Positions 2,146 to 19,007 of a stretch of DNA of 20,000 bases are shown here, one piece after another; the stretch's first letter is position 1; each line of letters begins with the position of its first letter. Location: assembly GCA_965178125.1 (NCBI GenBank), contig OZ237766.1, positions 789,628 to 809,627 of the forward strand. The letters run 5' to 3'. This stretch comes from Bilabrum cf. latius (Eukaryota). The notes below the pieces were generated by a model that saw only the letters and a program-made list of their open reading frames with translations, was not told where the DNA came from and ran no database searches. The position numbers were made by a program, and so were the translations under genes.

Positions 2146-4056
2146 ATGAAAGTCAGGCAAGCCCGTTCAAGACATGGACCTCCCAAACAATACTTGTCAA
2201 TGAAGGCATGGTACCTGGTGCTAGTGACAGTGGGAGTGTGCATCGCAATTTTTGTGGCAATTGTATAGGTTGCTCCTCCTGGTAGCTCTTGGACTCAATG
2301 TAGTGGAGCAAATTGTAGTCCCACCACGCAGGATTTGGCAGATAAAGACTCAATTATAAGCGCGTCAGAGCCTTCGAAAGCACATATCCTGATGTCGTTT
2401 GATGGCCCTGATGTAGCTGGCTTCCCAGTGGCCGCAAGATCGATCTTGATGGCCACGGCAGACCCCGCGCTGGTTCATTTCCACCTGGTCACGCCGCAGG
2501 CATCTGCCGCCAAGGTGCGTTAGGCTTGCACGTCTTGTCTTGACGGCATCGGCGGAATCGATTCATCAGGCGCAGCAGCATGCAGCACTGGGTAGCCGCA
2601 CCAAGGGGTGTTTTGCTGCGAAGACCAAGTACACTTCCTCCGCGGCGTGGACACAAGTACGACCACGGCTGTGGGTATCGCGGCCAAGCGGGTCTCCTCC
2701 CCTTTCAATGCGGCCCGGTTCGCAGGGATGGATGCAATGGTGGATGTGGCAGACCGTTTTGTGTACATGGACCCCGACATCGCAGTCGCAGGTGATGTGC
2801 AGGAGCTGGTGCACATGGACCTGGGGGGTTAGGCCGCCGCCCTTGCACGGATCCTGCACGTCAAGGGCGAGCAGAAGCAATCCATGTGCTCGGTAAAGGT
2901 GGGAGTGGACTGTAACGGACCTGGCGTGAGAGAGCGTTTGCTGGGGCTGGGAGTGGATACCAAGAAGCTGTCCAAAGAATGGGTGGGTAACGCTGGGATC
3001 GTGGTGATCGATGGAGCCAAATGGGGGCAGCAGCGGCTCGGCGACGCCTCCCGCGAGTGGATGGCCAGGAATGAAGGGGGCAAGATGTGGTAGCTGGGCA
3101 CGCAGCCGCCCACAAACCTGGCACTCCTAGGAAACAGGGCGGAGATAGATCCTCGTTGGAACACGCCTTGGATACGGCTTGGTCGCACGTCAGAAGGGGA
3201 TGAGGCCCCACTGCTGATGCATTTCCCCGGAGAAGAGTATAAGGCATGGCGGACTAGCCCAAAGAACATGGCCAAAGTCATCAAGGGGCACTGGGCCGCC
3301 CAGCGTTACTACGACCTTAGCGTCCTGTACCACCGCGCGTGTTTCGTGGGGGTGGGCAGCGAGCCGGCACCAGAGGCAGGGGAGGGCACCCGGCGATGGG
3401 GCTGGGATGCAAAGACAGGGATACGGGTACCACCACGGGAAGCTGGGGTGCTCTCACGGAGCGCAGACCCGTTCCGCTTTCGCCGCGAGCCCGCTGTGCT
3501 TGTGGTGGTTGCTCTGGATGGGGAGGAGCGGGAAGTGGCAAATCTGATTGTGGGGGCCGAGAAGAGCCTGGCCTCGCCCTGGCCCTGGACCGCGCTGCAG
3601 GTGTTTGTGGCCGCGACGAGTGAAAAGGTGGTCAATGTGGTACGAAGGAAAGCTGATTGCATCCCGGGAGGCACGGGCGAGGGCGAAGAGTTATCGATGG
3701 AGACGTGCAGGTCCATTCGTGGAGTTGTCATGGGCACCCCGATGCAGCATGGCGACCATGGGGGTGGGCTATAGATAACCGGTGCATCGGTTGTGTGTCG
3801 CGATGGTGGCGAGTGGGACCCGTAGGGGGCTAGACCGCTAAGGGCTGGCATTTGGCGGGAGACCCAAGGGGCCTACATGCGCGGAGGTGCACCAGACAGG
3901 CTGGGCGATCGGTTTGGAGCAGTCGAAGGTGCCCTTGGAGAGCTGCCCAGCTATGTGACGAGGGCCATCGTGGTGCCGTGGCCAGGTGGCGGGACCGTGG
4001 TGGGTGACGCGTGGGAGGCACTGCATGGGCCTGGCTCGTGCTACCAAGCAGGCTAA
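2146..4056 (+). CDS. Glycosyltransferase family 8 (GAUT/GATL-like) type II membrane protein, 636 aa with TAG read as sense
   Basis: One frame from ATG 2146 (MKVRQARSRH...WYLVLVTVGVCIAIFVAIV TM) through TAGs at 2266, 2521, 2593, 2830, 3091, 3772 and 3823 to TAA 4054-4056. Motifs FVYMDPDIAVAGDVQEL (DxD), GNAGIVVID, LGTQPP, MHFPG...KAW. Collinear with the paralogue at 14941-16884. Confidence 0.9.
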
Positions 4057-4282
4057 GCTCATGTAGCCCACCGTTTGGTTGGGTTGCGGTTCAACAGGGG
4101 CTCCATGTACGTGCAATGGCCACAAGTGATCTACCCCGTTACAGTACACTACAGTCCGAGGGTTCGTAGCAAGTCACCTTCTCTGTATCTCCCCACAGCT
4201 GGTACAGGCTGGTTGTACCACTCCTTTACCGTGTGCATCTGGAGTAGAACAAGCTGCTCCGTGGTGATGACCTACGCGCTGG

Positions 4283-6658
4283 TCAGTGGCGTTTCTTGTG
4301 CAACCGCTTGAGCTGCTCCGTGGTGATGGCCTCCGGGTCATGCTTGGTCAGCGGCTGCATCGCCTGCGTCACCTGCTCCTGGGTGAGCACCGTCCCGGCA
4401 GGTACCCCGAGTCCAGAGTCCCAACCGTCCGGTACTACTGGCTGCGGCAGGTGGTGCGCCACGATGCGGCCTCCGATGGCCTCGAGCGCCATCGGCTCCA
4501 CTGGGGCATGCGCACCCCTCGGTGTGTACGTCATCTCCCCCACATATACCTTGCCGTTCACCTCGAACAGATCCACGCGCACAAACGGGAAGGGCTCCGA
4601 GAGCTGCTGGGCGATGCGCACCATCTCTGCCAGCTTGGATGGGGGTTGAGAAGCTTCCTTTGCTGGGTACGGGTACTCGAACTCAACCACGTCTGGCAAG
4701 AAGGTCCAGTCGGGCAAGTAGAACCCCCGCTTATTCTTGCCTTGCTCGAAGCGCCCGTCCACTTCTTGCACGTAGATCACGCTGCCTCGGGAGCAGAAGA
4801 ACTTGTAGTCTGCTGGGATGGCGCCCCCTTCGTACAGCCGCTCCAGGATCATCGACCGCCGCACATGGTCATACTGTTTCTCGCGGCCGTTGCCCTGGCG
4901 TCGTTTTGTCACCTTAGATAGGACACGGTCGAATATTTCGCCGGAAAGCCCCTGCCCCTTGCAGCCCGGCAAGCCAAGCTCTTTAGCCACGTTTATGAAG
5001 TAGCCTTGGCAGATGATCATCTTGCCATCACGCAGGATGGCATTGACGCCAGCCAAGTTGCTGGCCTTGAACGCAAAATCAGACAGCCCGTCCACCGGAG
5101 GCCGGAAATTCGCAGCCACCTCTGGAAATACCACGCCCAGTGTATCCACAGAATGCCCTTCCCCAATCGCTAGGCGTGCAAAGTGCTTCACAGATGCCTT
5201 GTCTGTGAAGGGGGCATAGTTGGTTTGTCCCTAAGACGCTCCCATTCGCACGGTGAGGTCGGTCAAGCGGATGCCATCTGCCCTGGGAGGCTCCCTCGGG
5301 TTGCTGCGCACCTCCCCAACAGGCACAGATGGACGAATGGGCCCTGGATGGAACCAGTCTCTGAAATAGCGGTAGTACCACACGTACTGCAGTCGCTCAT
5401 ACTCCACGGACTCCATCCCGGGCCTAGCCACATACCTGCACTCCAGCAGGCGCAGCGTCTCCTGCTTCACCGTCAGAGGGTTCGGGTCACCGCCAGGAGG
5501 ACATACAGCCAACTCGACCCCAGCACTAGATGGTGCACGCTGCCCCGGCACCGGCAGTCCCTCCCACGGCTTGATCCTGTCCACTAGCCGCAGCAGCACG
5601 GGCGGTGAGGGAGCCATGGAGCTTCCTTGCCTGACTGAGGCCGGACAACCAGGAGAGGAGATTCGCAGGGCACCCTGGCCTGCCTCTGCTTCCCGCAACA
5701 GGCCCACTGAGACTGAGTCCATGGGTTGCACAATGATACTGGAGGGGAAGAATTCGGTAACAGATCCCTGGGTCTAGGTCAGGGCATCCCTTTGCCCCCC
5801 TTCATTCAGAGGGCACCTCCAATCTGACCCTGCCAGTCTCCACCGCTATCCATGCACGAGCAAGACCTCAGCACTAGCCGCGCCAGCACCAACTGGCATG
5901 GATGAACCCCTTACTCTCGATGACATCCCGCCCCCGGAAAGCACAACTGGCCTGGTGGTCCCGTAGCCGTCTTCATCCTCGAAACCCTACATGAGCTGCA
6001 TTGGATCCCGTGACGCTATCAGATGGGGATCCGGCAGCACCAGCACTGCCCCCGGTGCCGGCTGCTGCTCCTCTTCCTATCCGGTGGCAGGCAGAGAGGC
6101 GCACGAGGCCAGGGACACGAGCACACGGCGGTCAGCAGCCGAGCGGGTGTCGTCCTCCCACCGAGCTGGGGCGCGAGAAGCGGCGGACCGAGTCGTGGAC
6201 TGCTTCCCCTCCTTCCTAGTCTGCTGGTCCGCCACTCGAATGATGGAGTCGCAGGTACCGGTGGGCAGGTAGCACGGGCACGAGCCCTGAATCTCGGTCC
6301 AGGCAAGGTCGTCTGCCAGCACGGCAAAGCGGATGTCAGAGCTACGCGAAGCTCTCTCATACAAGGACCGTGCACCGATCAGGAAGCTAGGTGTGTTCGC
6401 ATAATCAACAGGGGCAGCAACCAGAAGGGTCAAAGCCGTCTGGTCAGCCTGTGCTCGTCTGAGCGTAGGCTATGATCTCCCCAGTATCGCCCATCCTGCA
6501 GCCACACAGACAATAGCAATCAAAACGCTATTTGTGTAACGACTAGCCACGACGCTGCAGCAAGAAGTGTACACCTGCGTGGCCGTGGATCCAACAACTC
6601 GTCGCAGTGATTGCTGTTTCTCCTTGCCTTCTCTAGAACCAGTGTGTCGACGTTGCAT
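4283..6658 (-). CDS. Fusion of signal anchor + degenerate GT8-like domain + TupA-like ATP-grasp, 791 aa with TAG read as sense
   Basis: ORFs 6470..6658, 6077..6433, 5231..5731 and 4283..5191 share one frame, joined only through TAGs (6470, 6077, 5987, 5846, 5774, 5231), ending at TGA 4283-4285. TupA-type motifs FTDKASVKHF, FAFKASNLAG, MILERL, DYKFFC, FPFVRVDLF, YVGEMTYTP. The N-terminal half resembles the neighbouring GT8s (FLIGARSLY, VLPDPHLIASRD, LLVHG*RW). Confidence 0.85.
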
Positions 6659-8168
6659 GCTCCAGCTGATGTGCGAGGAGCCTCGTGGAACAGTTTGTAT
6701 ACTCTCTGGTGCTGGATGCTAGCGCACTACTAGGACTCCCCAGGGTGCAACCGGTAGCACGCTCTAAAAGTCTGCTAGTGGTAATAACAGAAGAGACTTA
6801 AAATTTGCTAGACATCTGGCCAAAAGAGGAGCTGAATCGAACATTACGTTAAGACACGCGCGCCAGCATGAGATATGCAATGCAACTTCGGGGCGCAGTC
6901 TCGAGCCCAAACGGAAAGTACAACTCAGGCATATGCAAACCATTTAAATGGCCCGTCTTACCTTTGTAGGGCTAGCGTCTACTTGAGTTTCCGAAAGGGT
7001 CGAATAGTGCGTTGGGAACCCAAAATCACCCACAAAAGGTAAGGTAACGTGCACTTTCCCCCGTCGGCCCGTCGGCCGAGTCCGGTCGCATAGGAAGGAT
7101 GTGGTCGCACTGGGTTGCCAATGTAGTCGTCCAAAATGTGGCATCAGCTGGACAGTTGCTGAAGGCTGGTCCTAACGATAAGGTTGCAGTTCGACAACAG
7201 GGGGAACATGAGACGCAGGCCACCAACGAGCTGGGACGAGGTGGCAGCGGGCAGCGGACAGGCCAATGAGTAGGGGAGGTGATGGAATTTGCAGTCAGGT
7301 GGGGAGGTCTGATGTGCCCAGAGATGATCACGAAGGCAGGCTGCTGCTGGAAGTGTAGCGCTGAGAATGATTTGGGGGGAGGGAGGGAAGTGTGGCAGAG
7401 ACGAGTCAGCACCGTGCTCTGCACATAAGCTTAGCGTGTCTGTTAATTGAGAAGCGTGTTATATGGTTGGCAGCGAACGGATTCCCGCACAGTCGATCCG
7501 GAGTCCGGACGGGAGGCATGAAGAGGTGGAGTGAGACGGGCCTCCGCATTTCTCTACTTTATTGGAACCATCGCAACTGACGGCGATCGGGCCCGGATCT
7601 GACCATGTGTAGGCAGGAGTAACAAAGTCAATTGTATCAGAGTTCATCGCAGTTGTGCCAGCCACACCAACCCAAACCACTGGTGGATTGGCCATTGCAG
7701 GGCATTGCCACTTTCACGCATGAGCACCTTGCTTCAGGCTACCACCCACTGGAGTAGTACCAGTGCCACTAGCACGACATAGCAGTGTTTACCATACAGC
7801 GTAGGTGCCGTGCAAGAAGTATATTTCAGCCGCTCTTGCGTATTGCACGGTAGAAGCTGGTGCTATTCGCAATTTGAAGTTGAGCATAATACATGTCAGT
7901 GAGGAGCCGAAAGACCCACATGCCGGAAAATCATGTATTAGCTGTAAGCTACGGTACACAATGCGAATTCAATGCCCGCCTTCTGTTTCAGGAGTGTCTC
8001 CAACTATAAGTTTGCAGGTAGCGTCAGTTGGTCCCTGTCACTTGTTGCCCCCGATTCACCCAAAGGTTCTTTTTCCCGATTATTATTTAGTTTTAATGTT
8101 AGCAGGTACTTCATTGGTGTGGGGTGACTTGCAGGTCGCTTGGTCATCGTTTTGCCCAGAGACAACTG

Positions 8169-11100
8169 ATGGCAGCCATGCTATTCGCCGGAGCTGTTCT
8201 AGTCTTGGTGGCGCTCTTCGCGAGCAATGTAGTTCTGCCGTCTGTAGCTAATCGAGTTAAGCTAAGTCCTCCTGGCGCTACGCGAGGCCAACAGCCAGCT
8301 GTCCGTGTCGCTGTGCCGGGCGAAGCCCCGAGCACAGGAATAGGCCGGGGGTGCCCCGCCGAAGAGCAATCGCACGTGCTCTTCTCGTTTGATGAGCTGG
8401 ACTTGCCGGGCTTTTTCATCGCCACTTCCTCTGTGTTTGCCAACACCAAGCGGCCGGAGTGCATCAGGGTGCATGTGCTGTGCCCCTCGTAGGCCGAGGC
8501 AGACATCCGGGCCTCGTGCGCCTGCTCCATGCCTCCCTAGGCCTGCGCCTCCCTGCACTTTGTGCGCACGCGGCCCTTGACCAAAACAGTCACTGGCTCC
8601 AACACCCGCGGCAAGCACCTGGACTCCCCGTACAACCTGGGTCGGCTGGAGGCTTTCGACGCACTGGCCCCTTCTGTGGGCAGGATCGCCTACCTGGACT
8701 CTGATGTACTCGTGCTGGGGGATGTGCGGGAGCTCGTGCAATTTGATCTGCAAGGTACCGCGACTGCCTTCGCCTGGGAGCAGGACAGGTCTATGTGCAA
8801 CCCATGGGGGGTCAAGTGCGGTCACCCCGCTCTGAAGCAGGCAGGCCTTACGAAACAGTTGCTGCAGCGCAAGATGGTGGGCAATGCAGGGATCATGGTG
8901 GTGGATCTACAAGAGTGGAGGAAGCAAGATCTGAGCAGACGGGCCCGGCTCTGGTCTCACCTGAACCGCGACGGGGAGCTTTTTCTCCTCGGTTCGCAGC
9001 CGCCCATTATGCTGGCCACCATCAACAGCCGGGCTCAGCTGCCCACTGCCTGGAACCAGAAGAATGAGAAGAAAAACGACACGCAGCTCGTGCACTTTGC
9101 GGGCCCGGATAGGCCCTGGCGGGTGGATCGCCCCGGCCCGTACGCCGAGGCCAAGGCATTCCTGCGATGCCGCATGGGCTACAAAGAGGCCTCCACCTCG
9201 CGTGACCGCAATATGGTGGCTTATTCGAGGTATATGGCGGAGTACGGCGTCAGGACGGAGGGTGAGGCGCTGCCGCAGACCGTCAAAGACGTTCCTCTGC
9301 GTGACCTGCTAGCCTGGCGTGCAAGGCAGCCAGTGGCACAGCGGCTGGGCGTGTTTATAGACAGGGCAGCCCAGAAGCACTACGTCAGGACGGTGCTGGG
9401 GCAAGAGGGGTACTCAACGGAGACGCTCGCTGTGCTTGAGGCAGGACCACAAGGGGATGTAGGCGCGCTGGACAGGGACCTGCTGCCCCGAGGGCTTCTG
9501 GCGAGCTCGTCCTCCTCCACGGTGAGGGGCGGTGGCGGACTAGGTGCCTCGCCGGGGTCTATGCATCTCATCGTGCGGCCGCTGCACATGCCTGATCTGG
9601 TGATACACGTGACGGATGGCGCCGTGGATTCATCCCCCTGGAAGAAGGATGTGGGCCAGGCTGTGACGGAAGGACTGATCCGTAAGTGGCTGGGCGTGGT
9701 GACCCAGCGGTGCCATCGCTGCGAGACAGAGCTACAGAACGCGGGTGTGACGAGGGGGCTGATTGTGGAGAGGGAAGAAGAGTCGCTCGAGGGGCAAGAG
9801 GGGGTGCGCCTGCTGCATGACGGCCTCAAGATCTGGTGCACGAGGGGGGTGCCCATGCTGGTGGAAGTCGAGACGCGTGGAGGGGGCGGCAAAGGGCGCC
9901 GCAGATCGTTCTACACCCCCGGATGGGACCCCCTCCGAGTCAGCAAAAAATACCCGATGGATCCAGCGGCCAGCTCTCGCTAGGCCCCTCTGTTGCTACC
10001 AGAGGCCCTTCGGGTGGCTGCCGAGCTGAGCAAGCCCTTCTCCTTCGTTCGGGTGGATCTGGGCTCGATAGACAACCGCATCGTGGTGCAGCGGTTCTCT
10101 TTCGTGCCAGACGGGGTGGACGGCCCCACCTTTGAGCCCCCTGCCTTTGGATACGCTCTATCTCGGCTCGTGCAAGCCCCCCCTTCGCATGCTGCTGCCA
10201 AAGCCGCCATGCTGCCCTTTGTCAAACAGCAGGAGTGCAGCAAGACCTTGGTGACGGGCGCGGCCGGATTCATCGGGAGCCACTTGTCCAAGGAGCTGCT
10301 GGACAGTGGGCGCCCCGTGGTGGGGATCGACTCGTGGAATGCGCTGGACGAGGAGCACAGCGCGCTGATGGACGCTCGGGTGGCGGGGCTGGAGAAGGAC
10401 AAGGGCTTCCACCTCGTGCGATCAAGCACCTGCAACGTGCATGCCATGGTGGCTCTGCTCAGGGAACACAGGGTCTGCGACATCGTGCACCTCGCAGCGC
10501 AGCCGGGGGTGAGGCGGTCCACTCGCAGGCCCATGGAGACGGTAGAACTCAACGTGGGCTGCTTCGCCAGCATCCTCGAGGCTGTAGCTCGGTTCAACTC
10601 CACCATCCGGGTCGTGTACGCCTCCAGCTCCTCCGTGTACGGGGCCAATGCGGTGTCCCCCTTCGTGGAGACGGCATACCCCGTACCAGCCAGCATATAC
10701 GCCGCTTCCAAAGTGGCGGACGAGGCGTTGGCGCAGTCGTACCGTAACGTGCACAAGCTGAACCTGCTGGGCTTGCGGTTCTTCACCGTGTACGGGCCCC
10801 GGGGCAGGACGGACATGGCTGCGTACATGTGGGCGCGGGCCATCGAGGCGGGTGAGTCCATCAAGGTGTTCCAGACTCCTTCGGGGGTGGAGATGGCCAG
10901 AGATTTCACGTACGTAGGAGACATTGTGAGAGGTATCCACGGGGTGCTGCCTCGACGGGACGTGACGGGCGTGCTCAACATCGGTAAGGGCAGTCCAGAC
11001 AAGGTGTCAGACCTGATCGGCGAGCTGGAGGTGTGCTTCGGCAAGAAGGCCGTGCTGGACAAGGTGCCGCAGCCGCCGGGCGACGTACCGATCACCTACG

Positions 11101-11240
11101 CGGACACGACCAAGATGGCGAGGCTGGTGGGATACCGCCCTGAGGTGAGCTTGTAGGAGGGCATCCGGCGCTTCTGTGAGTGGTTTAAGTCGGACGAGGC
11201 CAAGGCAGTGAGGCGCAAAGCAGCGGTGGCTCTTGGCTGA
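8169..11240 (+). CDS. Triple fusion of signal anchor + GT8 + TupA-like ATP-grasp + UDP-glucuronate 4-epimerase-like SDR, about 1023 aa with TAG read as sense
   Basis: One frame from ATG 8169 through TAGs at 8490, 8538, 9981 and 11154 to TGA 11238-11240. GT8: IAYLDSDVLVLGDVREL, GNAGIMVVDL, LGSQPP, HFAGPDRPW. TupA-like: FIDRAAQKHYV, LKIWC, FSFVRVDL. Epimerase: LVTGAAGFIG, HLAAQPGVR, YASSSSVYG, YAASK, LRFFTVYGPRGRTDMA, RDFTYVGDIV, SL*EGIRRFCEWF. The exact start is uncertain. Confidence 0.9.
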
Positions 11241-11430
11241 ACACATGGAATGAAGTGCTCACCTCAGGATCCGATACTGATCTCGGTTGGGATTAAATCA
11301 ATTTTGGAATTGACATGACTTCGTGGTATCAATACTGTTGGGTCTAAGGTTAGCTAACCGTGGCCAGGTGGTACAGCGGGGGGATTAGCAAGCGTGCGGA
11401 AGGGCTCGAGGTTGTTGGGTTGGACGATGG

Positions 11431-11451
11431 TCTAGACTCTAGACTCTAGAC
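11431..11451. repeat. Tandem repeat (TCTAGAC)x3 between convergent gene ends
   Basis: tctagac-tctagac-tctagac read directly from the sequence. Confidence 0.9.
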
Positions 11452-11723
11452 GTCATGATTGTACAACTAGTGGGTGCGTAAACTGTAAGTTTTGCTACTC
11501 TAGATCGTTGGTTCACCATGAGTCGGCTGCCTAGGCTCGGGCATGCACGGCCTGCACTCGTACTTGGTCGATCCTGCACTGTTGCATTACCCGCAAGCCC
11601 AAGAACGGCACTGCTGTTGCCACAAGTATGTGTGGTCTAGGCTAGCCGTTCATCGAGACCTCACAAGAGCACTCCATGGCACGCGGAATCCGGTTGAACC
11701 CCTCTCTCTGCCCCAGAGGAGGC

Positions 11724-13508
11724 TCAAAGTGGATCTACATGTGCCCTACCTTGCGACTTAACAGTGCCTTGCTCCACATAATTCTTGGTGATCGCAGCCC
11801 TGAGTATATCCACGGCAGAGGGACCCGTGAAGTCCGCTCGATACAATGCGTCTGTAGGCCCACGAGCCACGCCGTAGAAATTGAGCATCTCGGCAATCGC
11901 TCGCACTCCCTCCATCATCTCTCGCACCTTGCTGTCGGGAATCGCGCGCAGAATCGGAAGCAGCTTGCCTTGGCGAAACATCGCGTAATTGACACGCACG
12001 CTGGCCAGGTGCCAAGGGATGAATTCTCGAAACGGCATCTCCACATTGTCTTGCACGACGGCAGGGACACATCCAGATACCAGCATGTCTACCAGCCGGT
12101 GACTCCACAAGTTCGGATGCCACCCGGGGAGGTACAGACAAAACTTGGACCGCTTCAGCAAGTCCATGTATCCAGATACTCTGCCGTTTACGTAAACGAC
12201 ACCATCCGTCTCCTCGTTCATGTGCCCGTACAGCCGAAGGCCTGACTGACGCACTCCCTGCGAGTACGATGAGGACTCATGTTTCGGATATAGTACAGAG
12301 CCCACGAAGGTCATCGTGACGGGCCGGTTCTACAGGGGGGGCCATCGGTGCGTGGACTTCAATGCGTACCTCCCTATCGTGCCCACATCTTTATGCGCCC
12401 GGAACCCTAACCCTAGAGGGTAGCTTGGTGCAACGGTGGCAAAGATTGCGCCATGAAGACCAAAGACGTGCTGCATCCACGTCCTGCACGTCTTGAGATC
12501 TCGCCACGCCCACTTTGCGTGATCGATGGCCCACTCCCTCCAATCCATACCGGATGACGCGAGATGCTTCGCGGTAAGGTTCCAGCCAGCGCCTGCCTTC
12601 GGTGTCTGTGGAATATCTGTTTGCATGCCGAGCAAGACTTCGTTGAGGCTCCTCCCTCCCCCAGTGACTATGATGAAGTCTGCGCCGCCAGATTGCTCCC
12701 ACCGGCGTGCGAGATATGGACGCCGCAAGACACGGCGAACCACATGAGCCATGGTGTCTGCACACACACGGGTCTTGATCGACGGGGACATGGGTACCTC
12801 GGCTGTCCTCTCGATCTTCAGGGCCGCAAGGGCGATCGACTGCGTGTGCAGAGGCAGCACAATCAGGTCGGCCTGCTCCGGGCCCGCAGCCCACCCTGTG
12901 GTAGCAAGTGCACTGCTCGAAGTCTTCGTCGCAACTGACGATCTCAGAGCGGCCGCTTGCTGCCGCTGGAGGGCATCAAGTATTGCCCACTCGGATGCAA
13001 ACCCTGCCTCTGCCGTTATGGACGTTCGGAAGTCCTTTGGTAGCATACCGATACCAGATAAGCCTTTGGGATCTCGTAGATCCGCAAAACCGGCTGCTGC
13101 AAAATAGCCGGATTGATCAAGCGGGCTTGTGCCCCACTTCTTGCAATTATCCTTCGTAGGCTTCGTGCGCATACATGTAGTAGGGCACATGCGGGATTCT
13201 TCTCTTATTTCTTCCCCAAGCACGAAAAACTGCAGCTGCCCACCGGCTTCAGTCGCAGCAGCGTTCAGCCGCTGCTGCACTACACGTACGACTTTGTCGT
13301 AGGGCTGTTCTCCCCGCACCTGCATCGGTGCTTGTGTTGAGACTACTGTTTCTTTTTGCCGAATTAATTGCTACCCATTTGGGCTACTGGCACCGCGCGA
13401 TGGGATATAGGCAGCCATAAGCAGCGCAAGTGCTGCCACTACTGCTACTACTGCAAGAAGAAATAAGGCTAGACGGGAGCGATTTTTCATCTTGGCTCTA
13501 GCAGGCAT
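11724..13508 (-). CDS. Exostosin-family (GT47) type II membrane glycosyltransferase, 594 aa with TAG read as sense
   Basis: ATG 13508 (MPARAKMKNRSRLALFLLAVVAVVAALALLMAAY, TM), in frame through TAGs at 13371 and 12330 to TGA 11724-11726. Motifs EQADLIVLP, RWEQSGGADF, FRAHKDV, RSKFCLYLPG, SHRLVDMLVSGCVPAVVQDNVEMPF. Confidence 0.9.
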
Positions 13509-13739
13509 TTTGTTTATTATTTATTCCTGATTGCGGCTCTCTTCTCTTCCAACTATGCACAAGATTGTGGCAAGGTACCTGATTCGCGTCCATTCGTAAA
13601 TGATAATCACACACAACAAAACCTTCAACTTTCGGCGCCGGTATCCGTCTAAAACTTGCGCTACTCCCGAGTCCGCCATATTGACTATATTCCTGGGCGC
13701 TTTGTCAGCATCCTGCCCCTGCTGAAGTCCATTGGAAGT

Positions 13740-14679
13740 GGCAGTGGACCAAGTGCTACTTCAGTGCCAGACCTGCTCTGATCCGGATCGATCGGTGACA
13801 AGAGGGAAAGGACCTAAGCCCACCACTCATAGGTCTGGAGATGGGAGCGGGTGGCGGGCTGGGTAGCGGGAGTGGAGAGCTGTCGTCGCGTGCCGGGGGT
13901 CGCAGCCTGGCGCAAGCGATGCCAGTGGTCGCAAGCAGCAGAGTGTCAGGCACAATGGGCGTGCCTGCCACGTTGGAGGTCACACAGAGTCAGGAGCTGC
14001 ATCTGAATCGTTGGCTGCAACTAGCTGCCGCCGTGATGCTTCGCGCTGTTGCTGCCATGGTGCTCGGGGGGCCAGCTAGCAGTTCTGAGCGCGATCCGAG
14101 CTCACGAGGCACAGAGCGCATGCCGGCGATCGGCGGCGGCGATGGGATATATCATGAAACGCTCCATAAAGTCGTTTGTGGCGGCACATCGCCGTCTCCC
14201 CGAATCCTGGATCGCTCTCGCGGTCGGCTTGCGCTGCGGTAATGTGGAGGGAGGGAGGGCGAGCAGGCCGCTTGGAGTCCTCACTCCCCAATCGAGCCGG
14301 CAGTACACGCATGCAATCGAATTTATTTCTTAATTGGTTCCATTCAAAGCGCTGTTGCATCTGCGATAGGAGCTAACTGGAGTGCTGACGCGTTGTGCCT
14401 CGAGGCTGGTGGCGTTGCAAGCTGCTGTTGGCCCGCTCATTCGACTCACCGATGCTATGTCGCCTATCTCATCATGAAATTGCATGTTTCATACTCAATC
14501 AAGTAGTATTTCGTGGAATCACTGCTGCGGGCATTGAGCTTGCAATTGGAGGTGACAGTATTCGCGCGCCTACGCCCGCAAGGCCCCTAACTAATACCCC
14601 GCCCGGACGCCTTTTAGTATTACTATTTATGTTAGTATGGACAGTGGGGCTGGACGATTTGTCTTTGCTTCTGCTGAGT
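13740..14679. repeat. Long copy of the dispersed repeat seen at 381-497, with about 850 nt between the conserved ends
   Basis: 13740-13783 matches 381-424 and 14638-14679 matches 456-497. The interior is unassigned. Confidence 0.7.
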
Positions 14680-14940: not shown

Positions 14941-16884
14941 TCACTATGCTCGGGGGCACAGCGCGATGCCGGCTGGATCTACCTTGAACTACACCTCTGG
15001 ATGCACGAGCACGATGGCTGCCCGCACGTACTTCCACACCTTTCGGAGGCCCTGCCGCGCCATGGTAGCTCGTTTCTCATAGCGGTCACCCGACTCCCGC
15101 CCCTCCTGCCACTCGTTCTACTAGTTTTGCTAGGGCCCCCTCAACCCTGTGCCAGCGAAGTGCCGCAACTCATCCTACCCCAGCATACGAAAGGGCAGCA
15201 GCTCCTCCAGTCCCTGCCCTCCAACCTGTCGGCACGCCACGAACGGCTCACGCCCATTGATACTTATCTCTCGGCTTGCATGTTTGGTTGGCAACATCAG
15301 CGAAGCACGCGTGGCCACCCCTTGCCCACTCTCCTTGTATTCGGGAGCAGCGCTAATCCTCTCGATGGCCCTGCATGTCTCGTTCGAAGGGCCACTCACT
15401 GACCGCAAGCACGCCTACACAGCATCCTCGTACACTTCCTTGGAATCAGTAACCGCCATCACATGCAGCGCCGTCCACGGCCAGGGTGCTTCCAGCTGTC
15501 GCTCGGCACTCCTCAGAGCCATAAGGAATGCCTCGCCATCTCCTCTCAGCAGCACCATCACAAGCACCACGGGCTACCTCCTCCAATCGAAGGGGACCGA
15601 CTGCCGCGACACAACTCCTGCTGCGGCTGCAGGCACTCGGGTCCCAGTCGCTGGGTCCCACGTCCAGTACACGCTGGATGCCACCCTAGGTGCAGGCGTG
15701 CTGCCCGAACCCACGAAGCAAGCCTCGTGGTACAGCACGCTCAGGTCGTAGTAGCGCTGCGCTGCCCACCACCTCCGCTTCCCCACCAGACGCATGTTTT
15801 CCACACTAGCCCTCCACGCCTTGTGCGAGGGTCCCTTGAAATGCATAAGCTTCGGGGCCTGATCGACACCATACACTAACCCCGCCATGTTCCAACCCGT
15901 GTTCCACGTTTGCGGGATGCGGGCCCGCCTGCCCAGCAGCGCCAGGTTCGTGGGCGGCTGCGTGCCCAGTGTCCACATCTTGCCCCCCTGGTTCCTGTCC
16001 ATCCACGTCTTGGCCTCATCGCCGATGCCCTGCTGCACCCATTTTTGCGTATCGATGACCATAATCCCAGCATTGCCCAGCCACTCTTTCTCGAGGCGTG
16101 ACACGGACATGCCCCAGCTCTGCAGGGACTCCTTGACACGCCGGTTCTTGCAGTCCAAAGCGGCCAGCGCGAAGCACATCGTGGGCCACTTGGTGCCCCG
16201 ATGGCCAGGCCTGGGGCACATGGCAGCCGGCTGGCCCTCTAGCTCCATCCAGACGAGCTCATGCACGTCCCCGATCACAGCGATATCAGGGTCCAAGAAC
16301 GCAATCCTGCGGGCATGAGCGGCCATGGCGTTGATCGCATCAAACCTTGCTGCGTTGAAAGGAGACTTGATTCGCTCCGCAGCCGAACCCACCACGGTTT
16401 CACGGTCCGTGCTGATGCCATCTAGGAAGTGCAAGTGTACGTCGCAGCAAAAAGCGCCAGGCTTGGGTGGATTGCAAGCTGGGCCTTGCAAGCCTAGCCC
16501 ATCTAGGCACCGGGTGCAAGCTCTTCGGACAATATCGTTTGCGCGAGGAGACACGACCAAATGGAAATGGATGAGTGAGGGGTCAGCGGCAGACTGCAGG
16601 ATGGAGCGGGCGGCCACTGCGAATCCTGGCGCATCGGCCTCATCAAACGACATCAGGATATCTACCTACTCTCGAGGTTTTGGTGCTACCTCCAGCCCAA
16701 GTCCGGGTGGCATTGGAGATTTGATAGCCTCTGTAACCCCAGCGCGGTGAGATATTGACAAGGCTATCGTAATGGTAGCCGTGACCAGCACCAAAAGAGC
16801 TATCAAGACGCGGTGCTGGACGAAAACTGCAACCCACCGCGACCTTGCCTGTGGTGACCGCCGCTTGCTAGAGCTTTCCATCAT
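14941..16884 (-). CDS. Glycosyltransferase family 8 type II membrane protein, paralogue of 2146-4056, 647 aa with TAG read as sense
   Basis: ATG 16884 and TM VLIALLVLVTATITIALSI. One frame through TAGs at 16666, 15574, 15415, 15175, 15130, 15121, 15118, 14989 and 14944 to TGA 14941-14943. Motifs IAFLDPDIAVIGDVHEL, GNAGIMVID, LGTQPP, HFKGPSHKAW, and WAAQRYYDLSVLYH (identical in the paralogue). Confidence 0.9.
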
Positions 16885-17690
16885 CAAAAAGCCAAAATAT
16901 GCCTGTGGAATCCCGTGGAACTACACTGCCGCTGCACGTATTGTGGCGACGAGATGCTTCCAACCGCTGCGACGCCGCCTCCACTGCTTGGCCGACCAAA
17001 GCTTTGCAAGCCCAGCACCTCGTAATGAAAGGTTGTTATTCTAAACCGTGTCGGGAAGAAGTAGTTGAGCGCGGGAATCCAAACAGGGAACTCCGAGATA
17101 ATCATTCCTACTTTGCAGCATAGTAACGTGTGGTTTTGTATATCAGACGCATACTGCCACAAGCATGCTCAGCCCAAAGCTAGGGAGGACTTCGCCAAAC
17201 CGGCGGACAATCCGTTTATTCAACTAGCTATTATTGCTCATGCGTTTTTGATCCAGCCATGGCTTCAGTCTCGGCCGCGGCCATACGCTCTAAGATGCTG
17301 CGAGTACTTGCGAGAACCGCACCTGATGCGTCTTGCTTGCGGATACCTCGAACTGCGCGACAGTTCTCGCCACCGCACTTACGTCGGAAACCCCGATTAT
17401 GTTGCTACAACAGGCTTTGCACATTTTGGCTGGATCGGATGGCCAGGGCTTGGCGCGCTCTCGATCCACCTCCGTTTGTTGCCGATTGCAAGCCAAGCTG
17501 AAGTGGTTGCAACTTCAAAATTAGCAATTCTGTGGCATGTTGCGTGCTATTTTGAGCGCTGAATGACATCGAATTGGTCCCCGCTGCACAGGAGCGGAAC
17601 GACCGTGAGCTGGGTCGGGCTCAATAAAGTACTGCTTCATTTTTAGGTACTGCTCGAGTGCAGCTCCTGGTTATATCAATTTAGCTCGCA

Positions 17691-19007
17691 ATGCCGTCGC
17701 CCGCCCTTCCGCGGCCGCTGCTGAAATCTACTTCCCGTCAGGTGATCGTTATCAGCGTCTTGGTTCTTGCTATTGTCACGCTCCCGTTGGTGATTCCATC
17801 ACTAGCAGGGTTTCGTGTGAACCGGGGCTCGCAGTACGCTGTGCAAGTACCGACAGAGCCGCCAAGCGCTTCCGTTGATTCGCCTGTCTCGTCGGGCTAG
17901 GGAGCACAGAACCTCGAAGGTCCAAAACCTCCATTACAGTTAAAGCGGGACGGAAAATGGAGAGGCGACATGTCGGTGCGGGATGAAGGAATCACAGTGG
18001 TCCTGTTGAACTTTAAGCGTCCCGAGCATCTCAAGAAGATCGTACGGGCTTACCTCGAGATGCCAGAGGAATTCATCCGCGATGTTTACGTGTTCAACAA
18101 TGACGATATTGATTTCCGGGATATGTTCGACCCCTTGCAGGGAGGGAGCTCTCGGGTGAGGGTAGTGGACGCCCACGCCAACCTTGGCATCGGGAATTCA
18201 CGATTCTTTGCTGGGACCCTGGCGCGGACTAGGGCCGTCCTGACGCAAGATGATGACTTGCTCTTGACTAGGTAGGGAGTGGAGCGTTTGTACGAGCATT
18301 GGAAGCGGGAACCGGACCGCATCCATGGCGCCTACAGCCGAGGCCCAACTCTGAATCGTAAGGCTGGGAGCAGCAAAAGGGGCGCATCCGTGCTCTCGAC
18401 CGACGACGCCTCCCCCGTCGAGGAGCGCATGGCCCGGAAGGTGCGGTACGAGATGTACAACCACCATCTTACGGAGGGGCAGTATCGAAGGCAGAAGCAG
18501 CGGGTAGAGCAGCTGCACAGCCAGGCAAACGGCGCAAACAGTGTGTGGGTCAGCGGGTCCGCCTGGAACGCGCCCTCGATGCCTCTCCGGTACGATGGCA
18601 TGACAGAGGAGGAGGATCTCGCCTCTGCCTGCCCCATCCTAATCACGAGGGTGGTCATGTTTGACCGAGCGAGGGCCTACCAGTACTTCCGCTGGGTCTT
18701 GGAGATGCAGGACACGGTGCCACAATAGAAGCCCTTTGGTCACGGGGAGGACCTATTGCTGAGCCTCCTGTCGATCCGCGAATCGGGGGGCAAGCTGAAC
18801 CGCGCTTGGAGGGACGTCTCCAGTGAAATCTCGGAGCTGCCGCAGATGAAGGTTGGCGTGTCTACTGTGAACAGCGACCACCTTGACTTCCGAACCATGT
18901 TCCTGCAGCTGGCGTGCGACAGGTTAGATTTGCCGTGCTGGGACTGGATCATGCTGGACATACCTACCGCGAGGAAGAAGCCCAAGCCCACCACTCAAGG
19001 CTAGTGA
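17691..19007 (+). CDS. GT64-like (EXTL2/EPC1-type) GT-A glycosyltransferase, type II membrane, 438 aa with TAG read as sense
   Basis: ORFs 17691..17900, 17970..18275, 18279..18728 and 18756..19004 share one frame, separated only by TAGs (17898, 18273, 18726, 19002), ending at TGA 19005-19007. TM VIVISVLVLAIVTLPLVI. Motifs ITVVLLNFKR, VYVFNN, NSRFF, RTRAVLTQDDDLLL, WKREPDRIHG, GEDLLLS. Confidence 0.85.

Follow-up and report, generated by a model that had tools for sequence, protein, structure and literature searches.

Can a glycosyltransferase, an ATP-grasp and an epimerase sit in one polypeptide, and if they do, which of them still work and what would they make? We asked this of a gene in a 20,000-nucleotide stretch of DNA, the whole of which we call the window. 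An earlier note on this DNA had proposed that TAG codons are read through here to give a single polypeptide, and we found exactly such a frame: under table 15, 8169-11240 (+) is a single stretch of 1023 codons with TGA at its end. The TAG codons in this frame are 108, 124, 605 and 996 (positions 8490, 8538, 9981 and 11154). Pfam and hydropathy of the table 15 translation bore out the proposed domain order of membrane anchor, GT8, TupA-type ATP-grasp and UDP-glucuronate 4-epimerase-type SDR, with Glyco_transf_8, ATPgrasp_TupA and Epimerase all above cut-off. Residue numbers are counted from ATG 8169. The features of the fused gene are:

7893-11240, + strand: fused gene with corrected start (ATG 7893, intron, main exon 8106-11240; 1046 or 1061 amino acids)
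7899-8105, + strand: GT..AG intron by the start codon (joint in X5, skipping 207, and in X6, skipping 162; alternative donor 7944)
8181-8237, + strand: single hydrophobic segment, residues 5-23, putative type II membrane anchor (mean hydropathy 2.5, next best 1.1)
8376-9122, + strand: GT8 domain, residues 70-318 (PF01501, 74 bits, cut-off 24.3)
8490-11156, + strand: four in-frame TAG codons, read as Gln (frame; MCM motif; CUA tRNA; same letters in run contigs)
9345-10172, + strand: TupA-type ATP-grasp, predicted catalytically dead (PF14305; K to R399, K to R470, Y to N524, D to G552, E to R642, T to S644)
10242-11198, + strand: UDP-glucuronate 4-epimerase-type SDR (alignment to 6ZL6, B. cereus UGAepi, E 2.4e-42)

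We compared contigs from four public runs over 4000-14000 (X5-X7 are RNA by guess). The X3 and X5 contigs agree with the window at all four TAG sites and run across both domain junctions without a single differing letter. Run contigs tile the fused gene, a tiling that by itself is no proof of one transcript; the stretch 7006-7673, where X5-X7 give no cover, was not taken as evidence. A second full copy of the fused gene, P0122, lies 16 kb upstream (G000:C32:781179-784448). Its protein is 80% identical to that of the window over 1005 columns, its TAGs stand at different codons, and it has zero TAG from codon 454 to the end, the ATP-grasp/epimerase junction included. The second full copy and the matching X3 and X5 contigs exclude chance or assembly error: the three-domain fusion is real.

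GT..AG joints connect 7898 to 8106 in X5 and 7943 to 8106 in X6 (X3 is without them), and both splice forms keep the frame open from ATG 7893 to the TGA at 11238. Because the two joints bring ATG 7893 into frame, the gene probably starts there and not at 8169, and its product is a protein of 1046 or 1061 amino acids in which a short tail precedes the anchor. The hydrophobic segment is a probable type II membrane anchor, which would give the domains a luminal topology. Between the two copies, dS is 0.17 in the 5' part of the epimerase (10242-10913, compared with L013) and 0.7-1.4 elsewhere in the gene, which suggests gene conversion between the copies.

We wondered which of the three domains could be active. 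The Epimerase match (residues 694-939) scores 150 bits, and alignment to 6ZL6 confirmed that the extended-SDR motifs GxxGxxG (G697-G703) and YxxxK (Y844, K848) are intact, as the earlier note had stated. P779, R782, S821, Y844, K848 and R880 correspond to P85, R88, S127, Y149, K153 and R185 of UGAepi, and the carboxylate and phosphate binders of that enzyme (P85, R88, T126/S127, R185) are matched by P779, R782, S820/S821 and R880. Every UGAepi catalytic and carboxylate-binding residue that could be mapped is kept, the residue roles being those given in the accessible text of PMC11519531 and PMC12338863. The genome encodes a UDP-glucose dehydrogenase, and its only close GAE-type matches, among at least 6 matches, are the two fused copies. 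On these residues we consider it quite likely that the domain makes UDP-GalA. The epimerase is divergent, however: of 210 GAE-like sequences, only 4 have the derived motif VRRS and only 4 have GRTDM, no sequence besides the two copies and the homolog P0020 combines the two, and thus the substrate may have shifted. Plant GAE is ∼40% identical, and the fused epimerase forms a long branch outside the plant clade. Plant GAEs carry an N-terminal anchor, as the fused protein does; unlike plant GAE and the B. cereus UGAepi, the epimerase here stands behind a GT8 and an ATP-grasp in the same chain, and VRRS and GRTDM are derived.

The fused GT8 has intact DxD (D177, D179), NAG, GSQPP and HxxG..W motifs; in its KPW motif, Arg replaces Lys in the window copy and Lys is present in P0122. 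It matches LgtC with E 8e-4, and dN/dS between the two fused copies is 0.19 in this domain. Among named GT8s, the nearest are dinoflagellate proteins that carry a GAUT annotation by similarity, and the GT8 tree contained zero plant sequences. Plant GAUT/GATL proteins are GT8s that have NAG as the fused GT8 does, and they carry a G-x-[QL]-PP-type motif, a type that the fused GT8 matches. The donor is not readable from the sequence; by association with the epimerase fusions, GalA is a plausible one.

A working ATP-grasp in the fused protein, however, is not supported. The ATPgrasp_TupA match (PF14305, residues 522-649) is partial, with 29.2 bits for a cut-off of 25, and reaches 45 bits in P0122. 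We scored conservation over 17 bacterial TupA domains (14 of 27 plasmid matches plus L078, L154 and L156), with the family definition drawn from the accessible secondary literature. Six positions are invariant in 17/17 bacterial TupAs. All six are changed in both fused copies; all six are kept in both copies of the neighbouring gene described below and in the homologs P0016, P0020, P0147 and P0148. The invariant Lys, Lys and Asp and the metal-binding Glu-x-Thr are absent (R399, R470, G552, R642, S644), and the Glu after the RVD strand (position 642, here Arg) is the residue that binds Mg in ATP-grasps. Nevertheless, dN/dS between copies is 0.24-0.27 in this domain, which is purifying selection. 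With six residues lost and purifying selection still acting, the fused ATP-grasp is very likely a retained pseudo-enzyme. A PDB sequence search with TupA domains gave zero matches.

The gene next to the fused gene shows the opposite pattern:

4283-6658, - strand: head-to-head paralog with anchor, decayed GT8, intact TupA ATP-grasp and no epimerase (Pfam, splice joints, alignments)
5558-6436, - strand: its decayed GT8 (PDP in place of DxD, no NAG, KPW kept; zero Pfam GT8 match)
4454-5227, - strand: its intact TupA ATP-grasp (PF14305, 63.5 bits; all six invariant residues)

We place the start of this neighbour at 6658 because ATG 6943 sits inside a spliced leader intron (6772-6961). Its second copy lies at G000:C32:784535-786865. 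The N-terminal halves of both neighbour genes have no Pfam match; hhalign of the neighbour N-terminal half against GT8 gave probability 90 and E 1.6e-6 over 61 columns, and the homology is firm over these first 61 columns only. The upstream gene pair aligned as one piece (653 columns, 25%, E 1e-26), and the window pair gave separate GT8 (E 5e-7) and ATP-grasp (E 2e-20) matches. By alignment, then, the fused gene and its neighbour are shown to descend from one GT8-ATP-grasp ancestor. The simplest history is that this ancestor was duplicated, that reciprocal loss followed, and that the pair was then duplicated. It is this reciprocal dead-domain pair that makes the locus unusual: a natural, clean case of two paralogs, each without the other's activity. 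Their mirror-image defects suggest that the two may share work.

Both genes lie in a contig-end cluster (G000:C32:757000-809627) of at least 14 glycan genes, which contains all of the genome's 4 TupA matches and its 4 strongest GT8 genes. GT92 and GT15 genes are also found there, and the window holds the following further cluster genes:

2146-4056, + strand: anchored GT8, related to the fused GT8 (PF01501, 71 bits; alignment)
11724-13508, - strand: GT47, exostosin-type (PF03016, 81 bits)
14941-17121, - strand: anchored GT8, paralog of 2146-4056 (50% identical; PF01501, 73 bits)
17691-19007, + strand: GT64/GT2-like (PF09258, 38 bits)

With GT47, GT64, GT92 and GT15 genes around it, the fused gene would seem to serve a single step in the making of a mixed glycan. 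Interleaved with the cluster genes are a repeated element and a reverse-transcriptase ORF (L012:1-2403), and 13686-14000 is a high-depth repeat with many variant contigs.

The best explanation as a whole, and one that we think reasonably probable, is a secretory type II protein with an active GT8, an active epimerase and a dead ATP-grasp, its work being split with the neighbour. The fused protein would belong to the secretory pathway as a type II membrane protein, and its C-terminal SDR would turn UDP-GlcA into UDP-GalA, as the intact active-site residues suggest. The GT8 would pass a sugar, most likely that GalA, to a surface glycan built with the cluster glycosyltransferases; GalA transfer by this domain is somewhat probable in our judgement. 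The fused ATP-grasp would no longer ligate and may now serve for structure or binding. Labour would thus be divided, the fused protein having kept the GT8 and the neighbour the ATP-grasp. Amidation of a uronic-acid carboxylate would be the probable chemistry of the neighbour ATP-grasp, by analogy with Campylobacter jejuni Cj1438, and on whether it takes place we are evenly divided. The locus would offer a pathway, open to testing, by which a lineage of bacterivorous flagellates may make surface glycans that are acidic and possibly amidated.

Cj1438 consists of a GT2, a linker and a TupA-like amidoligase that amidates the C6 carboxylate of GlcA (PMC11800379). It is the closest precedent, with a glycosyltransferase, a linker and a TupA-like ATP-grasp in one chain, and its cluster makes a uronic-acid surface polymer. 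As described in the accessible text, it differs from the fused protein in being bacterial, in having a GT2 and not a GT8, in having no epimerase, and in that both of its domains are active.

Do the two paralogs work as one complex? The fused protein and its neighbour could form an obligate heterodimer in which dead domains brace live ones, as CHPF does for CHSY. The losses are mirror images in both gene pairs, the pair was duplicated together, and both dead domains are under purifying selection (dN/dS 0.24-0.29, the decayed GT8 having 0.29 with dS near saturation). CHSY-CHPF and EXT1-EXT2 heterodimers (PMC13389171; 10.1101/2022.06.19.496623) are precedents, being paralogous multidomain glycan synthases with inactive domains; in the accessible text of these sources both activities lie in one partner, whereas here the losses are reciprocal and the binding is putative. 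A dead domain may, however, be retained in its own chain as a spacer or to bind acceptors, and the pair orientation differs, head-to-head in the window and tail-to-tail upstream. We regard an obligate heterodimer as conceivable but rather unlikely and hold physical pairing of the two proteins to be just as tentative. GAUT1:GAUT7, where an inactive paralog is the partner, is a possible likeness. More doubtful again is a eukaryotic Golgi complex in which two paralogs, their dead domains being reciprocal, together make UDP-GalA and both transfer and amidate GalA, which would be uronamide chemistry of the bacterial-capsule type on a protist surface glycan.

Slightly less likely than the heterodimer is an uncoupled arrangement, in which all of the cluster would draw on the UDP-GalA (or another 4-epimer) from the epimerase, while the fused GT8 would transfer a different sugar. 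The donors of GT8s number five, UDP-Glc, -Gal, -Xyl, -GalA and -GlcA (PMC6571792, accessible text), the window has two further intact GT8s, and the epimerases among the homologs have many fusion partners (GT1, GT2, GT47, MUCI70 and UDP-glucose dehydrogenase). However, this type of epimerase has repeatedly been fused to GT8s with the same motif. GT8 and epimerase are also joined in P0016, P0149, the sponge Geodia (P0019), a JGI cluster (P0018) and Salpingoeca helianthica (P0080); the fusions of P0016, P0149, P0019 and P0080 fall in separate epimerase clades, and their GT8s share a G(S/T)QP motif. Such fusions give a hint of which donor a GT8 clade outside plants uses, animal-lineage members included. 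If the Golgi complex described above exists, the sponge, choanoflagellate and marine-metagenome fusions would mark this clade as non-plant GalA transferases. P0019, P0018 and P0080 (sponge, choanoflagellate) have the order epimerase-EGF-GT8, a hint that GalA may be transferred in the animal lineage too.

That all three domains are active, so that a single enzyme would supply UDP-GalA and then both assemble and amidate a galacturonan-like chain, we consider very unlikely. All three Pfam domains do exceed their cut-offs, the fused ATP-grasp still has E534, K554, R628 and D630, and P0016 and P0020 keep the catalytic Glu. The structure prediction called for by the earlier note succeeded in part: a low-confidence model of the middle domain, guided by intact homologs (pLDDT 56), has a Ddl-like fold (Foldseek to Ddl, E 2.8e-4), but the full-length AlphaFold2 model from 4 sequences reached only pLDDT 43. 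Against activity, the six invariant residues, the Glu after the RVD strand among them, are gone from both of the genome's own copies. In the TupA-like CfmP, mutation of a conserved Glu, presumed and not aligned to be equivalent to position 642, abolishes function (PMC12632600, accessible text). An intact ATP-grasp adjoins the fused gene, and a homopolymer such as homogalacturonan would be hypothetical.

How new is the three-domain architecture? The suggestion that it was novel stood in part: it is rare, and our literature searches (subscription papers and supplements lay outside them) gave no paper on it, but it is not unique. The order GT8-TupA-epimerase occurs in 2 of 120 listed homologs, P0016 and P0020, both uncharacterised (431 matches, 8000 candidates scored). 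In a profile search of 1.84 billion representatives, P0020 alone spans the profile among the best 150 of 145,092 matches, and TupA was found in 0/21 further entries scanned. P0020 comes from Logan and P0016 from ENA, Tara and GenBank (MBN21134.1). P0020 is anchored and shares VRRS and GRTDM, and its GT8 has NND for DxD; both homologs are ∼30% identical to the fused protein and, unlike it, keep the ATP-grasp Glu. In the epimerase tree, the window epimerase has P0020 as its sister (SH-aLRT 99, long branch) and P0016 branches elsewhere, our trees being quick ones with long branches. Because the two epimerases branch apart, the three-domain order may have arisen twice. A GTDB scan gave nothing but a stand-alone epimerase match, a metagenome scan gave 80 loci that match essentially to the epimerase alone, and a TupA scan of 401 genomes gave one strong match. 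The parts are all of known kinds, and the GT-TupA fusion already has a precedent. P0016 and P0146-P0150 form a marine modular GT8 family mixing TupA, epimerase and methyltransferase domains, one member of which derives from a 0.1-0.22 um fraction, while another is binned with a bacterial MAG. They are possibly giant-virus genes; no viral locus was found for P0016 or P0149.

The fused frame depends on how TAG is read. All six long window ORFs contain in-frame TAG (36 codons in total, counted from the first ATG) and end in TGA (5) or TAA (1), and in-frame TAG is also present in Prp8, MCM, HSP70 and eRF1 on other contigs. It is barely credible that the TAGs act as true stops or are errors, with separate or broken genes for the domains: the frame does break into pieces under table 11 and databases do hold a cut form, P0308, but the TAGs in these many genes and the TAG-free run of P0122 across the ATP-grasp/epimerase junction argue against it. 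P0308, a Logan protein 92% identical to P0122, terminates exactly at P0122 TAG453 and has Gln at TAG377 and Glu at TAG410. Standard gene calling thus cuts such fused proteins at TAG, and they get missed.

Which amino acid does TAG encode? At the MCM 'EQQ' motif, the genome's own loci have TAG in 2/8 and CAG CAG in 6/8, and homologs have QQ in 116/120, the other 4 being outside the pattern; few conserved Gln sites were used. One copy of a CUA-anticodon tRNA was found (G000:C23:907607-907679, which is L020:1501-1573, - strand), with a clean cloverleaf. Its acceptor stem is like that of tRNA-Tyr (50/73 identical, ungapped), and its D-arm and discriminator G73 resemble tRNA-Gln(UUG). No Gln-CUG tRNA was seen among the 63 of 780 candidates scored and the 27 loci scanned. 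In the copy-versus-copy alignment, the 32 TAG columns stand opposite Gln 4 times, Arg 7 times and aromatic residues 0 times, counts that are ambiguous by themselves. From these sequence comparisons we conclude that TAG is Gln genome-wide, with UAA and UGA as stops; loci noted for this code are L061, L065, L070 and L054. We also considered TAG=Tyr, which is ruled out by the 0 aromatics opposite 32 TAG columns and by QQ in MCM, and UAR=Gln, which is needless as one window gene ends in TAA.

The best named full-coverage match of MCM7 is Cafeteria roenbergensis (52%), with higher scores in two named rows of lower coverage and one unnamed row, and a quick MCM tree of 31 rows paired the host with Cafeteria (SH-aLRT 89). 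By match and tree, the host is a Cafeteria-related stramenopile. Nuclear UAG=Gln with UAA as a stop is described for Iotanema, Hartmannula, Trochilia and Protocruzia (PMC11687900). Their code is the same as here; the host here is a stramenopile, and the accessible text of that paper names none. In the literature searched, we found no stramenopile nucleus with UAG=Gln and UAA/UGA stops. Such a code in the nucleus of a stramenopile, together with a CUA tRNA of hybrid appearance, could prove as important as the fusion itself.

The eRF1 gene (L016:3550-5423, + strand) itself carries two in-frame TAGs, one of them at human Leu69, a site linked to UAG recognition (PMC5304391, accessible text), and the host eRF1 has TAVNIKS where TASNIKS is expected. 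Two unlike 18S genes, 77-83% identical, are present: L018 (C12) is a tandem array of 1700 nt and L017 (C95) a single copy of 1802 nt, which possibly reflects a second organism in the assembly. A UCA-anticodon tRNA (L019:1022-1095) lies on the tRNA-dense, 38 kb C111, which is probably mitochondrial, and suggests that TGA is read as Trp there.
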